A stretch of 64,000 nt of DNA from Clostridia bacterium (GCA_028692955.1 JAQUWH010000001.1:130143-194142); one strand, 5' to 3'; numbered from the stretch's first letter, positions 26,243-32,750 are shown. Program-made: numbers and translations. Notes: a model not told the origin generated them from the letters alone.

Positions 26243-26788
26243 ATGGAGACATTCAAAGTAGGAGATGTAGTGGCAAGAAAATCATATAATCTCGACGTTT
26301 TATTTAAGATAACTAGAATCAATGCAAATGGTATGGTGGATTTAGCCGGTCTTACTGTTAGGATTATTGCAGATGCACCAGACTATGATTTACAACATAT
26401 TAGTAAAGAAGAAACAGATAAAAGAGTACTTAATACTGAAAAGAGTAGAGTGGCTAGATTAAATAGATGTTATATGAATATGAATAAGAAGATAAATGGT
26501 TATTACAATATACGTGAACAGGTAACGGTAGAGGAAAATCCTAATGTATTTAAAAAAGAATCTATTTTGAAGAAACCGGGTATTGTATTACATATAGATG
26601 GGGACCCGGAATATACGGATAGATGTAAGGAAAGTTATAAAAGAATGGGCGTTACTGCTTATACCTATAATATACCAGAGCAAGAGCAATATAAGCAGAT
26701 TTATTCTTTGCTTCAAAAAATAAGGCCAAATATATTAATACTAACAGGACATGGTGATATAATTTATCCTGAAAATATTTATAAATAG
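26243..26788 (+). CDS. yabG: sporulation peptidase YabG, 5-prime segment (interrupted after the conserved TGH)
   Basis: METFKVGDVVARKSYNLDVLFKI ..., VLHIDGDPEY, RPNILILTGH match the YabG N-half. The ORF runs 12 codons into element DNA and then stops. Confidence 0.85.
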   Translation: METFKVGDVVARKSYNLDVLFKITRINANGMVDLAGLTVRIIADAPDYDLQHISKEETDKRVLNTEKSRVARLNRCYMNMNKKINGYYNIREQVTVEENPNVFKKESILKKPGIVLHIDGDPEYTDRCKESYKRMGVTAYTYNIPEQEQYKQIYSLLQKIRPNILILTGHGDIIYPENIYK

Positions 26789-26878
26789 ATGAGATAAATG
26801 TAATAGTTATACAGATCAAATTGAAGACTGAATATAGTTTTTTCTTAATAAAATAGTGATTTTTTACAAAAGTGTAAT

Positions 26879-26907
26879 TTGACTCTGGATACTATGTATG
26901 GTATACT
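26879..26907 (+). promoter_or_regulatory. sigma-A type promoter of the element cargo operon
   Basis: TTGACT-N17-TATACT (with TGg extended -10), 26 nt upstream of ATG 26933. Confidence 0.5.
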
Positions 26908-26932
26908 ATATATCATAAAAAGGAGTTTTGAG

Positions 26933-27886
26933 ATGACAAACATAACTTTAAATAACAATTTAAAGCAAATTATATATGGCTCTAATGAAAACTATAAACT
27001 AATAGCTAAAGATGATAATATTGGAGAAAACGGACAAGAATTAACAATAGTAACATTATCATGTAACAGGAAAAAAGCTACAATTAAACAGATTGAATCT
27101 CTAAAAAAGTATTTTCCGAATTTTAAAGGTAACTATCTAATAGGAGATAATGGCTCTAGTAAAGAAACAATAGTGGCATTGAAAGAAGCAATAAAAAATG
27201 CACCATTTAATTGTAAAATAGTAGAATTTGGAAAAAATTATGGAGCCACAATTGGTAGGAATAAAATTGCAAAGTGCGTAAAAACAAAGTGGTTTTTAAT
27301 GCTTGATAATGATATATATTTTACTACTAATATATTAAATGAATTAAGAGAAACCATTCATGAGTTTGGAGCCCATTTTATCAATATTCCATTGATGAAA
27401 TCTACAAAGCAAAGTTTATATTCCCTAGGAGGGGCTTTTGAAATAACTAATGATAATGGGAAATATAGAGTAGAAGGCAAATCAATGTTTGACTTACATA
27501 CAGATGAAATCCTTGAAAATATGAAAGTACCTAGATCTATATCAAATTTCTTATATGCAACGGCTTTGATGAAAACAGAAACGTTTCTTAAAATTGGTGG
27601 CTTCGATGAAAATATGTTTATAGGTTTTGAGGATATAGATTTTTCTATCAAACTATTTGATTTAGGCTATAAAATTGCTACTGCCGGTATAATTGGAGCA
27701 GTGCATGACCATGAGACGGCTACTGACCTAAATGATATAGAATATGAAAAAACCAGATTTTCTAATGAATTACTGCTAAATTCAGCAATATATTTTGAAA
27801 AGAAACATGGACTTAAAGTATGGGGAGCCGATGTTGATAGATTATTAGAAGAAAAGAAAAAAGAATTAAAACTAGATAATATATAG
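26933..27886 (+). CDS. family 2 glycosyltransferase
   Basis: about 317 aa; LTIVTLSCNR, IGDNGSSKET, LMLDNDIYF (DxD) motifs; SD AAGGAG. Confidence 0.7.
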   Translation: MTNITLNNNLKQIIYGSNENYKLIAKDDNIGENGQELTIVTLSCNRKKATIKQIESLKKYFPNFKGNYLIGDNGSSKETIVALKEAIKNAPFNCKIVEFGKNYGATIGRNKIAKCVKTKWFLMLDNDIYFTTNILNELRETIHEFGAHFINIPLMKSTKQSLYSLGGAFEITNDNGKYRVEGKSMFDLHTDEILENMKVPRSISNFLYATALMKTETFLKIGGFDENMFIGFEDIDFSIKLFDLGYKIATAGIIGAVHDHETATDLNDIEYEKTRFSNELLLNSAIYFEKKHGLKVWGADVDRLLEEKKKELKLDNI

Positions 27887-27905
27887 TTTTAAATAAGGAG
27901 AAATT

Positions 27906-30186: not shown

Positions 30187-30339
30187 ATGAAGTGTAATTT
30201 TGAGGCTGAACATATTAATTTAGATAAATTATCTTTTGATGAAATGAAGCAAGTAATATGTAGAAAAATAGCAAAAATAATCATATACAATGAAGAAAAA
30301 ATTGATATAGTAGAAAATGAACATAAATTAAAAATATAA
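30187..30339 (+). CDS. small ORF (50 aa) upstream of the recombinase, candidate directionality factor or regulator
   Basis: not in the ORF track (below size cut-off); GGGAGTGA SD 5 nt before ATG 30187; ends 33 nt before the recombinase start. Confidence 0.35.
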   Translation: MKCNFEAEHINLDKLSFDEMKQVICRKIAKIIIYNEEKIDIVENEHKLKI

Positions 30340-30372
30340 TAGTGAAATATAGTTGCCAAAAGGAGTTTTTTT

Positions 30373-32337
30373 ATGATCATAGATAAAGAGAATCAAAAGA
30401 ATAATTCTTGTGATGTGATTTCAATGTTTGATAAAGATTCCATTGAAATACAAAAAATAAAAGAATATATAGATATTACAAATTTAAAATATGTTTCAAA
30501 TAATATTCAACGAGTATTAGGGATTAGTGTTAATACTGATGATAGTTGTTTTAAAAAAAACACAAACAACATACGAGTGATGCTAGATGGCAAACAATAT
30601 CGTACTATTTTATACATAAGGCTATCTGTGGAAGATGGTGATATTATTGATGGTGATGTTAGTAAAAGTATCAGAAATCAGCTATTATTTTTATTAGATG
30701 AATGCGAAAAAAGAAATTGGTGTGTTGTGGCAATATTTTGTGAGGAAGGCATATCGGGTGCAGATGATAATAGACCAGAGTGGAAGAAATCATTGGCTTT
30801 TTGCGAATATGGAAATACAGAAATTGTATTGTGCAAAAGTCAGTCAAGGTTTTCAAGAAGTATGGAAATGATAGAGAAATATCTCCATAAGGAATTTGTA
30901 TCTTGGAATGTTCGATTTGTCGGATTAGTGGATAGTACAGATACATCAGTGGTGGGAAATAAAAAATCAAGGCAAATTAATGGATTAGTAAATGAGTGGC
31001 AGGTTGAAGATCAATCTATCAATATTAGAGCCATACTAAAGAATAAGCAAGCAAATGGATTATTTACAGGTGCTTTTGCGCCTTATGGATATAAGAAAAA
31101 TCCAAATGATAAATATCAGCTTATTATAGACGAGGAAGCAGCAATGGTAGTAAAAAAAATATTTTCTTTGTATGTAGAAGGTAATGGAAGTAGTTTGATT
31201 TGTGAGTATTTGAATCAAAAAGGAGAGCTAATTCCCAGTATTTATAAATATAGTAAGGGTACCAAGTATAGAAATGCTAGAGTAGAGCCAAATAAAAGAA
31301 TAAAATATCAAGTTGAAAAGTATGATACGATTACAACAATAGCTACTAAGTTTCATTCAACAGTTGATGAAATAGTAAAGTACAATTCACTAAATAGTGA
31401 AAAATTGCATGTAGGTCAGGTCATTATTATACCAATAATCCAATTATGGAGACCATCTACAGTTTATGAAATCTTAAAAAATGAAGTTTATATAGGGACT
31501 TTGGTACAACATAAAAGAGAGCGATTAAGTTATAAAAATAAGACGATGCGAACGATAGATAAAAGCAAAAGGATAATAGTACCGCATTGTCATAGTGCAA
31601 TAATTGATAATCAAACATGGGATATTGTAAGATCAAGATTTGAAAAAAATAATAGAGTTAAACCTATAAATAGTGGTCAAATCGCGCTATTTTCTCGAAA
31701 AATAATATGTGATGTCTGTAAAAAGTTTTTTTATAGAATGAATAAAAAATCGAAAATAGGTTTTACGACTTACTGGAATTGTGCAACTGGTTATGGGGTT
31801 AATAAAAATTTATGTGATAATACAAAGGTAGTAAGAGAACCAGATGTTTATGAATTTGTATTACAAGAAATAAATAAGCAAATTGCAAAATATTATGATA
31901 AAAATTTAATAGAAAAAAATTATCATGAACAAAAGGTATTAAATTCTATTGATGAAAAAATTAAATCTCTAAAAAAAAGAAAATCAATTATAGAGAGTAA
32001 TATGCTTAAAAAAGAGGATACATTTGCTATTTTATATGATGATAGAGCCAATGGTATCATTACTTTAGATGAGTTTACGATGATGAAAAGTAAATATCTA
32101 AGAGAAGTATGTGATTTTAAGGAAAAATTAAAGCAATTAGACAATGAATTAATCAACTTAAATAATGAAAAATCAAAGGAAGCTGCCACAAAAAACGTAT
32201 TACAAAAATATAAAAAATTAGAAATACTAGATAGAGTAATATTAGATGAATTTATATCTAAAATATATATTGGTAATTATAATAAGGAAACTAAAATAAG
32301 AAATATGAAAATTGAATGGAATTTATTTACAGAATAA
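30373..32337 (+). CDS. large serine recombinase with embedded LysM-like module
   Basis: 654 aa. It has a resolvase domain (YIRLSVEDGD ... SKSIRNQ) and a recombinase domain (APYGYKK, EEAAMVVKKIF). It also has a Cys-rich zinc-ribbon (CDVCKK ... C ... C), a coiled coil and SD AAGGAG. Confidence 0.88.
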   Translation: MIIDKENQKNNSCDVISMFDKDSIEIQKIKEYIDITNLKYVSNNIQRVLGISVNTDDSCFKKNTNNIRVMLDGKQYRTILYIRLSVEDGDIIDGDVSKSIRNQLLFLLDECEKRNWCVVAIFCEEGISGADDNRPEWKKSLAFCEYGNTEIVLCKSQSRFSRSMEMIEKYLHKEFVSWNVRFVGLVDSTDTSVVGNKKSRQINGLVNEWQVEDQSINIRAILKNKQANGLFTGAFAPYGYKKNPNDKYQLIIDEEAAMVVKKIFSLYVEGNGSSLICEYLNQKGELIPSIYKYSKGTKYRNARVEPNKRIKYQVEKYDTITTIATKFHSTVDEIVKYNSLNSEKLHVGQVIIIPIIQLWRPSTVYEILKNEVYIGTLVQHKRERLSYKNKTMRTIDKSKRIIVPHCHSAIIDNQTWDIVRSRFEKNNRVKPINSGQIALFSRKIICDVCKKFFYRMNKKSKIGFTTYWNCATGYGVNKNLCDNTKVVREPDVYEFVLQEINKQIAKYYDKNLIEKNYHEQKVLNSIDEKIKSLKKRKSIIESNMLKKEDTFAILYDDRANGIITLDEFTMMKSKYLREVCDFKEKLKQLDNELINLNNEKSKEAATKNVLQKYKKLEILDRVILDEFISKIYIGNYNKETKIRNMKIEWNLFTE

Positions 32338-32378
32338 TTTTTTTTTGATAAGTATTTTCAAGATAACGTGTAACACCA

Positions 32379-32750
32379 CATGATGCATTTGTTAGAAAAA
32401 GAAATGATATCTATAATATAGATAATTACAAAAATTCAAAATATTATATACAGGGAGTTTTAGAAGCTAGAAGATATGAGCATAATTTAGATAACTTGGT
32501 CATATTTGCAGGAGCCTGCCAGAGTTATTACGAAGCAATAATTTCAGCAGGTGCTAATTTTGCAAGTGCACCAAAAAGGGTTTTAATTGATATGATGGAT
32601 CCGATTATCGTTGCGCAAACCATAGCTTATACACCAGTAGATGATTTTGTACCTATTGCTAATATTATTAGTAATACAAGAGAAGGAATCAGTGGAATCG
32701 GTGGAATACAAACAAGAGGTCAATATCGTACAGGAATGCCAGGACTATAA
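32379..32750 (+). CDS. yabG: sporulation peptidase YabG, 3-prime segment
   Basis: the frame is open from 32367. HDAFVRK ... LVIFAGACQSYYEAIISAGANFASAP ... GIGGIQTRGQYRTGMP matches the YabG C-half. There is no independent SD/ATG. Confidence 0.85.
   Translation, partial: HDAFVRKRNDIYNIDNYKNSKYYIQGVLEARRYEHNLDNLVIFAGACQSYYEAIISAGANFASAPKRVLIDMMDPIIVAQTIAYTPVDDFVPIANIISNTREGISGIGGIQTRGQYRTGMPGL

Follow-up and report, generated by a model that had tools for sequence, protein, structure and literature searches.

A 5.6-kb serine-recombinase element in the sporulation gene yabG of a Clostridia bacterium, and its relatives at other landing sites

The interrupted yabG gene

A 64,000-nucleotide stretch of the genome of an uncultured gut Clostridia bacterium (GCA_028692955.1 JAQUWH010000001.1:130143-194142; called the window here, with all positions counted from its first letter) contains a copy of the spore-coat protease gene yabG that is split into two parts by a 5,629-bp element carrying a large serine recombinase gene. 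Such a split had been described in an earlier note on this sequence, and all of its coordinates and numbers, including the open reading frames (ORFs), the rejoined length of 879 nt or 292 aa and the 5,629-bp gap, were reproduced in the present analysis. The 5' ORF has a good ribosome-binding site (RBS) and an ATG at 26243, is YabG-like as far as ...RPNILILTGH, and then runs into the element, where it adds GDIIYPENIYK before a stop at 26788; the portion belonging to yabG (26243..26751, + strand) comprises residues 1-169 and the CA of the His170 codon. The 3' part (32381..32750, + strand) supplies the third base of this codon, Asp171-Leu292 including the catalytic Cys216, and the stop codon (32750). 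Its frame, open from about 32370, reads HDAFVRKRNDIYN...GACQS...GIGGIQTRGQYRTGMPGL, starting with HDAFVRK and ending with GMPGL, and both a start codon and a promoter of its own are absent.

When 26243-26751 and 32381-32750 were joined, they formed one in-frame gene whose 292-aa product matched the NCBIfam model TIGR02855 (spore_yabG) with 312.6 bits (cut-off 270.4) over profile positions 1-282 of 283 in a single stretch, and the Pfam model PF05582 with 338.5 bits over positions 1-280 of 280. A protein database search with the joined sequence identified an intact 292-aa protein (P0121) with 92% identity over 100% of its length, as well as over a hundred further proteins at 67-83% identity. At the DNA level, the joined gene could be aligned codon for codon, with no gap at the junction, to the intact genes of P0121 (locus L040) and P0122 (locus L042), whose neighbourhood is the same as in the window (an Sm_multidrug_ex gene, yabG, and then an M23 peptidase and/or ribosomal protein S20). 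Thus, in view of this gap-free alignment to syntenic intact orthologues, the two fragments are collinear halves of a single gene, as had been proposed. The split is also present in a separate Logan contig (L044, from SRR22315505; 12,192 bp), which is 100% identical to window positions 23115-35306, and no second yabG was found within the 64-kb window.

YabG, a cysteine protease, is counted among the genomic signature proteins of sporulation, and it is a mother-cell product under sigma-E/sigma-K control in Clostridioides difficile and Bacillus subtilis; for activity, the B. subtilis enzyme needs His172 and Cys218, and the C. difficile enzyme needs His161, Asp162 and Cys207 (PMC10681294). The equivalent residues here are His170, Asp171 and Cys216. 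The insertion point lies in the His170 codon, between CA and T, and therefore parts His170 from both Asp171 and Cys216, so that neither fragment can be active.

Upstream of the gene, a candidate sigma-K-type promoter could be read from the sequence at 26195..26222 (+ strand), with AC at 26195-26196, a 17-nt spacer and CATACAATA at 26214-26222. The sigma-K promoter consensus of B. subtilis is AC, 16-17 nt and CATAnnnTA, which this candidate site fits. The CATAnnnTA block did not vary among the five yabG upstream regions compared, two of which (L036 and L038) are from distant hosts. A CAC-type -35 element was visible only in the three closest regions (the window, L040 and L042).

Two further observations concern yabG and its surroundings. 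In a close relative that lacks the element, yabG consists of two overlapping ORFs produced by a frameshift (L045:7649-8537), which is either a sequencing error or an independent inactivation; a 178-aa YabG protein that begins at LHIDGD (P0254) had been considered as a second split allele and was ruled out, as it reflects this simple frameshift. In addition, a three-gene block in the window (24234-26141, - strand), encoding a LiaG-like protein, a HAAS-domain membrane protein and a PadR regulator, lies between the Sm_multidrug_ex gene and yabG and is missing from the otherwise syntenic L040 and L042. The window as a whole is an ordinary chromosomal region in synteny with L042, with genes for RarA, D-Ala-D-Ala carboxypeptidase, MecA, ribosomal proteins, DnaB, TilS, FtsH, McsB and a Clp ATPase. 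A search of positions 25000-34000 against Rfam families gave no match at E-values up to 0.1.

Ends, recombinase and cargo of the element

If strand exchange occurs at a CA dinucleotide common to both ends, the integrated element occupies 26752..32380 (+ strand; 5,629 bp), with a G+C content of 26.0% vs 29.4% for the window, and all credible genes in it have the same orientation as yabG. The left attachment site, attL (26721..26782), reads ...CTAACAGGA-CA-TGGTGATATAATTTATCC..., its crossover dinucleotide (26750-26751) being placed by the empty sites in L040 and L042 and by insertions at the same codon in L010, L036 and L038. The right attachment site, attR (32349..32410), reads ...GTGTAACACCA-CA-TGATGCATTTGTTAG..., with the crossover dinucleotide at 32379-32380 according to the comparison with empty sites and the reconstruction of attP and attB, the sites expected in the circle and in the rejoined gene, respectively. 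The element is bounded by terminal inverted repeats representing the two attP half-sites, of which the left one (26752..26785) pairs with the right one (32345..32378); these 34-nt arms are 79% complementary and were ranked first by a blind repeat finder applied to 26600-32500. In the reconstructed attP, TAAGTATTTTCAAGATAACGTGTAACACCA CA TGGTGATATAATTTATCCTGAAAATATTTA, 24 of 30 positions are symmetric about the CA, compared with only 10 of 30 in attB, and the CA is common to both. The uninterrupted core that attL and attR of the window have in common is 5 bp long (ACATG). Sites of large serine recombinases span about 40-50 bp and show imperfect dyad symmetry around a non-palindromic crossover dinucleotide in their centre, which both partners share, and attP and attB as reconstructed here have this form. 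An exchange between attL and attR at the shared CA would yield an uninterrupted 292-aa yabG gene and a 5,629-bp circle. The predicted junctions are ACAGGACATGATGCATTT for the rejoined gene (attB junction, ACTAACAGGACATGATGCATTTGTTAG) and AACACCACATGGTGATAT for the circle (attP junction, GTAACACCACATGGTGATATAATT), and the rejoined and circular junctions given in the earlier note do follow from the sequence.

The recombinase gene (30373..32337, + strand) encodes 654 aa and ends 43 bp short of the right junction, with the catalytic Ser85 in the motif YIRLSVED. Its product contains the Pfam domains Resolvase (PF00239, residues 79-229), Recombinase (PF07508, 254-426) and Zn_ribbon_recom (PF13408, 439-501), which bears out the large serine recombinase that had been assigned to the gap. 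A LysM domain (PF01476, 5.6e-11) was detected at residues 312-354 (window 31306-31434), inside the span of the Recombinase model. At the C-terminus, DUF4368 (PF14287) gave a weak match of 20.3 bits, below the 25-bit cut-off; this domain is recorded for many relatives of the protein. Ser85, Arg83, Arg159 and Arg162 were invariant in an alignment of 16 homologues. Prediction of the structure from these 16 homologues with AF2 gave a model with a mean pLDDT of 72, comprising a helical N-terminal extension (24-60), the catalytic domain, an interrupted recombinase domain, the zinc ribbon, long coiled-coil helices (489-612) and a C-terminal beta unit, in which the LysM segment forms a beta-alpha-alpha-beta unit (309-354; block pLDDT 82-87) within the recombinase domain. 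The enzyme is intact and apparently competent, as every domain and every invariant residue known from active enzymes of this class is present. It was also observed that the N-terminal extension of about 75 aa (residues 1-75) and the LysM insert are kept in more than 100 homologue clusters.

Among solved structures, the closest in sequence is that of the TnpX catalytic domain (E = 3e-10 in PDB), and the closest named relative is TndX, with 27.5% identity over 88% of the protein. None of 50,697 phage records exceeded about 28% identity to the recombinase, and none of 72,556 plasmid records exceeded about 32%. In a literature search, no paper was found in which LysM and 'large serine recombinase' occurred together.

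Directly upstream of the recombinase gene lies a small ORF of 50 aa (30187..30339, + strand) with the RBS GGGAG. An ORF of 38-50 aa with a strong RBS occupies the same position in at least 20 of the related loci, irrespective of the gene that is targeted, and the motif YEIE..LSxEExKxIICKKIAKxII is common to the relatives; no PHROGs match was obtained for it. Large serine recombinases integrate attP into attB unaided, and the reaction between attL and attR needs a directionality factor (PMC12286644). In the gin element of Bacillus cereus ATCC 10987, which interrupts gerE, the recombinase GirC and the 42-aa protein GirX are necessary and sufficient for excision, and GirX has no recognisable motif (Abe et al. 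2017, PMC5595907). By analogy with GirX, we infer that the small ORF may encode the recombination directionality factor of the element.

The remainder of the element is occupied by three cargo genes, all on the + strand. The first (26933..27886, with an alternative TTG start at 26879) encodes a family-2 glycosyltransferase of 317 aa (PF00535, 3.1e-11) and is supported by a gene call in L044. The second (27906..29009) encodes another family-2 glycosyltransferase, a GtrB-like protein of 367 aa (PF00535, 1.5e-33; PHROG 22739, 3.8e-26), which resembles phage morons of the type labelled 'GtrB-like O-antigen conversion' in that PHROG family. No family could be assigned to the product of the third (29002..29838; 278 aa), for which searches of Pfam, PHROG and PADLOC gave no match, a PP2C-like hit of 22.8 bits being sub-threshold. 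The cargo operon probably ends at an intrinsic terminator (29836..29907, + strand), a strong hairpin (dG -19.3 kcal/mol, z = -4.3 vs shuffles) with an 18-nt arm pair that is 94% complementary, followed by a U-rich tract. Comparison of the element with PHROGs revealed no phage genes, the matches being confined to integrase and glycosyltransferase 'moron' families. None of the three cargo genes had a counterpart in the related loci or a PADLOC match. Taking the ends, recombinase and content together, we have very little doubt that the insert is a site-specific, non-viral integrative element of 5.6 kb located in the His170 codon of yabG.

Relatives of the element and comparison with known systems

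The element is not a one-off: it is a member of a large family with LysM-bearing serine recombinases that occupies the same yabG site elsewhere. Protein searches identified over 100 recombinase clusters, with proteins about 650 aa long and 43-62% identical to that of the window, nearly all with the LysM insert, and a scan of one genome per species identified 39 loci, nearly all of them in metagenome-assembled genomes (MAGs) from animal or human gut that are labelled Clostridia, Clostridium or Bacilli. By using tblastn and a hidden Markov model (HMM) built from 120 YabG sequences, we found the 3' half of yabG directly downstream of the recombinase gene in seven loci (L001-L004, L010, L034 and L036) and the 5' half upstream of it in three (L010, L036 and L038). 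The eight loci stem from several studies and different hosts; in all of them the junction lies at the TGH|D codon, and comparison across them leaves CAT as the sequence that attL and attR share. Their YabG sequences are only 31-50% identical to that of the window, which indicates that the hosts are distant.

These repeated insertions also bear on the possibility that a chimeric contig has wrongly placed a mobile element in yabG. The source is an assembly of an uncultured organism, and the sole other contig with the split may share the same reads. However, the junctions fall on a precise common CA with terminal inverted repeats, and the same architecture recurs at the same codon in the eight independent loci, so that an assembly artefact appears extremely improbable.

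The size of the elements in yabG varies from about 3.1 kb (L010) and about 4.3 kb (L036) to at least 11.9 kb (L001-L004), and in L038 the 5' half of yabG lies only about 630 bp from the recombinase gene. The conserved core of the family consists of the recombinase and the small ORF, and cargo is not common to the members: a PemK/MazF toxin, XRE regulators and other genes are carried in L001, and an AbiLi/AbiLii anti-phage defence pair in L036 (7738-9629). The elements in L001-L004 are about 100% identical over at least 11.9 kb left of attR (for example, L001:1-11944), and identity drops to 84-95% from 17 bp beyond the CA core. The presence of identical elements in hosts differing by 7-9% shows that horizontal transfer, with site-specific integration into yabG, was recent.

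Some members of the family have further peculiarities. One stretch of the element in L001-L004 (L001:2239-3696) shares 93% identity with host DNA located upstream of yabG in L036, a hint that flanking host genes have been captured. In L010 (5834-7640), yabG was seemingly cut twice, at TGH|D by the LysM-recombinase element and at a second site, HID|GD, where a different serine recombinase of 520 aa (5834-7396) lies just upstream of the middle fragment of yabG; the first ~115 codons of this gene are off the contig. Two tandem LysM-type recombinase genes were observed in L015 (from 2293), L016 (10001-13910), L019 (from 6538) and L020 (10001-13924), followed in the last by a fragment with a weak, sub-threshold match to the metallo-beta-lactamase fold.

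Other sporulation genes appear to serve as landing sites as well. In seven loci, the recombinase gene (47-55% identity to that of the window at the protein level) is followed immediately by an ORF fragment beginning with PHGG.DPG (L008:3690-4241, L009:4057-4602, L011:11954-12502, L012:8083-8634, L013:2450-2998, L017:11887-12519 and L027:2035-2589), and the five fragments tested matched spore_cwlD (TIGR02883) from profile position 7-9 to the end with 164-194 bits. The junction, ...CCA-CA-TGG..., lies in the His codon of the GHGG motif, which suggests that these elements split cwlD, a sigma-E-controlled cortex gene in B. subtilis (PMC517825). In three others (L005:11969-12103, L006:2383-2517 and L014:11934-12089), the recombinase gene abuts the last ~40 residues of dipicolinate synthase subunit B (dpaB/spoVFB; TIGR02852 positions 147-187), likewise a mother-cell sporulation gene and probably a further target. 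Within the available flanks, no 5' fragment or attL was found for the loci with cwlD and dpaB, nor was the inverted-repeat partner expected at the left end of the cwlD-associated elements, and these splits are therefore documented on the 3' side only. No published cwlD intervening element was found in a literature search. The occurrence of one recombinase family at three sporulation genes is the strongest comparative argument for a lifestyle as sporulation-gene intervening elements.

A more distant clade (43-47% identity; L018, L021, L022, L023, L025, L026, L028, L032 and L033) ends beside poly-G tracts (CTGGGGGGGG), which lie just past the recombinase stop codon in L018, L021, L022 and L023. 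Genes for large surface proteins follow these tracts; some of the products are pilin-like (N_methyl, DUF285/LRR, PKD), and the others are unassigned. This clade may differ in its biology from the sporulation-gene elements and may be involved, for example, in phase variation.

Among the systems described previously, one affects the same gene. The earlier note had left undecided whether a yabG-splitting element was already known, and one has in fact been published: yin, a putatively functional prophage of about 50 kb in yabG of Clostridium botulinum V73, for which PCR, qPCR and sequencing demonstrated excision, a circular form and a restored yabG, all rising on entry into sporulation (Douillard et al. 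2023, PMC10747680). Up to November 2023, its authors had seen no further insertion in yabG among public genomes (PMC10747680). Both elements target yabG, and both encode a large serine recombinase, comprising Resolvase, Recombinase and Zn-ribbon domains, together with a small protein that is a candidate directionality factor. On the other hand, yin is a prophage of the Caudoviricetes-like type, its recombinase of about 551 aa lies beside the 5' yabG fragment, and its att sites have a 14-bp direct repeat in common, whereas the element studied here has 5.6 kb without phage genes, a LysM-bearing recombinase of 654 aa beside the 3' fragment and a core limited to ACATG. It is thus distinct from yin in size, content, and recombinase lineage and position.

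The closest system in kind is gin rather than skin or yin. Like the element in yabG, gin is a non-prophage intervening element in a mother-cell sporulation gene, with a very small recombinase partner and accessory cargo. It has 28.6 kb, three recombinases, restriction-modification genes, a 9-bp core and a Bacillus host, and its excision has been demonstrated, whereas the element described here is about five times smaller and its excision is a proposal. The term 'skin-like' used in the earlier note holds for the architecture of an element that intervenes in a sporulation gene; it does not hold for the content, which has no phage genes and is nearer to that of gin.

The elements skin (in sigK of B. 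subtilis and C. difficile) and SPbeta (in spsM of B. subtilis) likewise split a sporulation gene that is restored by excision in the mother cell, with the recombinases SpoIVCA, CD1231 and SprA and the directionality factors Skr, CD1234 and SprB. Elements of the skin/SPbeta type are prophages or prophage remnants of 14-134 kb. Their recombination genes are under documented sigma-E, sigma-K or SpoIIID control, whereas such a promoter was not found for the recombinase module of the window, and the recombinase here belongs to a different, TnpX/TndX-like lineage with a LysM insert. TnpX (of Tn4451) and TndX (of Tn5397), encoded by clostridial transposons, are the nearest characterised relatives by sequence, at <30% identity; they mobilise resistance transposons with loose or different target choice and are without a LysM domain. 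Finally, an element named vfbin, reportedly described by Abe et al. in 2013, is said to reside in spoVFB (dpaB) of Bacillus weihenstephanensis KBAB4, the gene whose 3' fragment the recombinase genes of L005, L006 and L014 abut; its host group is a different one.

Proposed excision during sporulation and the alternatives

Intervening elements of sporulation genes are the textbook example of programmed DNA rearrangement in a terminally differentiating bacterial cell. By analogy, the recombinase alone would integrate the element described here, and the recombinase together with the small ORF product, acting as directionality factor, would excise it. Excision would take place in the terminally differentiating mother cell during sporulation, which the earlier note had called plausible, the forespore chromosome retaining the element, and the rejoined yabG would then be expressed in the mother cell from its conserved sigma-K-type promoter. 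Confined to the mother cell, excision would make carriage of the element nearly cost-free, which would explain the occurrence of the family in yabG, cwlD and dpaB. Insertion into yabG by a serine-recombinase element with mother-cell excision is, in our opinion, the best overall explanation (a probability of about 0.6). The coupling of excision to sporulation, considered by itself, we would put slightly above an even chance.

Several observations weigh against this explanation. The excised form was not found in the public data queried: neither the circular junction, GTAACACCACATGGTGATATAATT, nor the left arm of attL/attB, ATATTAATACTAACAGGACATG, had an exact match among JGI metagenome contigs, and the exact rejoined YabG was not present in a collection of 15 billion proteins. 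These negatives are uninformative, as the organism seems to be absent from both sets. Moreover, among 20 loci, the 200 bp upstream of the small ORF contained neither AC-N16-18-CATAnnnTA nor a sigma-E-like motif. No enrichment of sigma-K or sigma-E patterns was seen there, the -10-only motif occurring at 0.75/kb vs 0.47/kb in the background; it should be noted that the consensus sequences used are those of B. subtilis and may not apply to the hosts. In nine loci, the regions upstream of the small ORF did not align, and only the RBS was conserved. A generic sigma-70 promoter scan produced 63 matches vs 55 in shuffles and was hence not used. The co-orientation of the genes had suggested that excision might be triggered by read-through from the yabG promoter; this is weakened by the terminator at 29836-29907, which parts the recombinase module from transcription of yabG and the cargo. 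In addition, L007 (59% identity) abuts a fragment of an AhpC/TSA peroxiredoxin gene (11792-12049) and no sporulation gene, showing that not all family members target sporulation genes. The recombinase reading frame of L036 is broken by a frameshift (10746-10762), which may reflect decay or an assembly error, and some copies may be decaying. Finally, yabG is not essential for sporulation in model species, and spore counts, heat resistance and germination of the yin-bearing strain V73 and the yin-less strain ST7B were not critically element-dependent (PMC10747680). With a dispensable yabG, a permanent disruption could be tolerated.

Much of this would also be expected if the insert were an ordinary integrative island whose att site happens by chance to lie in yabG, leaving a permanent knock-out in a host that does without YabG or without sporulation. 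The missing mother-cell promoter motif before the recombinase module, the frameshifted recombinase of one relative, the lack of an excised form in the data queried and the viability of spores of model organisms after loss or interruption of yabG (PMC10747680) all agree with such a knock-out, as does the recent horizontal arrival of the elements, since intact fragments then need not show selection. For the same reason, low dN/dS of detached yabG 3' halves (0.04-0.11), which had been considered as proof of function, could not be used as evidence of selection after insertion and was dropped. However, the repeated targeting of three sporulation genes is difficult to account for if insertion is not cheap in the sense of being reversible in the mother cell. 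A chance knock-out also leaves unexplained the conserved small partner ORF, which has the size of known directionality factors, and the intactness of both yabG halves and the promoter, and the experimentally tested elements of such architecture, yin in yabG included, all excise. We therefore consider a permanent knock-out unlikely.

Excision might, on the other hand, occur without a developmental trigger, the element flipping between integrated and excised states in some cells at all times as a stochastic or growth-phase switch. The outcome could be subpopulations with yabG ON or OFF and hence heterogeneous spores, or mainly the horizontal spread of the element itself. Integrated, excised and circular yin were seen at all time points, and its rise during sporulation was merely quantitative (PMC10747680). 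A sporulation sigma-factor motif was not found before the recombinase module here, and the evident transfer between hosts needs excision in DNA-donating cells. Against a switch of this kind, germ-line excision without re-integration would lose a non-replicating 5.6-kb circle, and the bias of the family towards mother-cell sporulation genes is better explained by excision in a terminal cell. We regard such a switch as quite unlikely, and mother-cell excision remains our preferred explanation.

The family as a whole, with its LysM-bearing recombinase and partner ORF and its insertions in yabG and probably in cwlD and dpaB, seems not to have been described so far in the literature searched. A bolder proposal, which we think rather doubtful, is that it represents a widespread family of non-viral elements of about 2.7 to more than 12 kb, with a LysM recombinase and a 40-50-aa partner, that has specialised in catalytic-motif codons of mother-cell sporulation genes (yabG TGH|D, cwlD GH|GG and dpaB) in uncultured gut Firmicutes. 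Its members would be self-excising developmental switches that ferry defence and surface-glycan genes between species, and the LysM domain might couple excision to a peptidoglycan-derived cue during engulfment or cortex remodelling.

Our results extend the interruption of yabG beyond one C. botulinum isolate to an unrelated, smaller and non-phage element with relatives in several gut lineages. If the element does not excise, it would amount, with its relatives, to a natural knock-out that recurs in gut Clostridia and affects a protease of the sporulation signature, with a bearing on spore germination phenotypes. If excision does occur, a recombinase and a peptide of about 45 aa would form a compact module with natural attP/attB pairs, a possible tool for genome engineering. 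Such elements would also allow defence systems and glycosyltransferases to pass from one spore-forming gut bacterium to another with a low burden on the host, and the family would lend itself to the comparative study of sporulation genes as landing sites.

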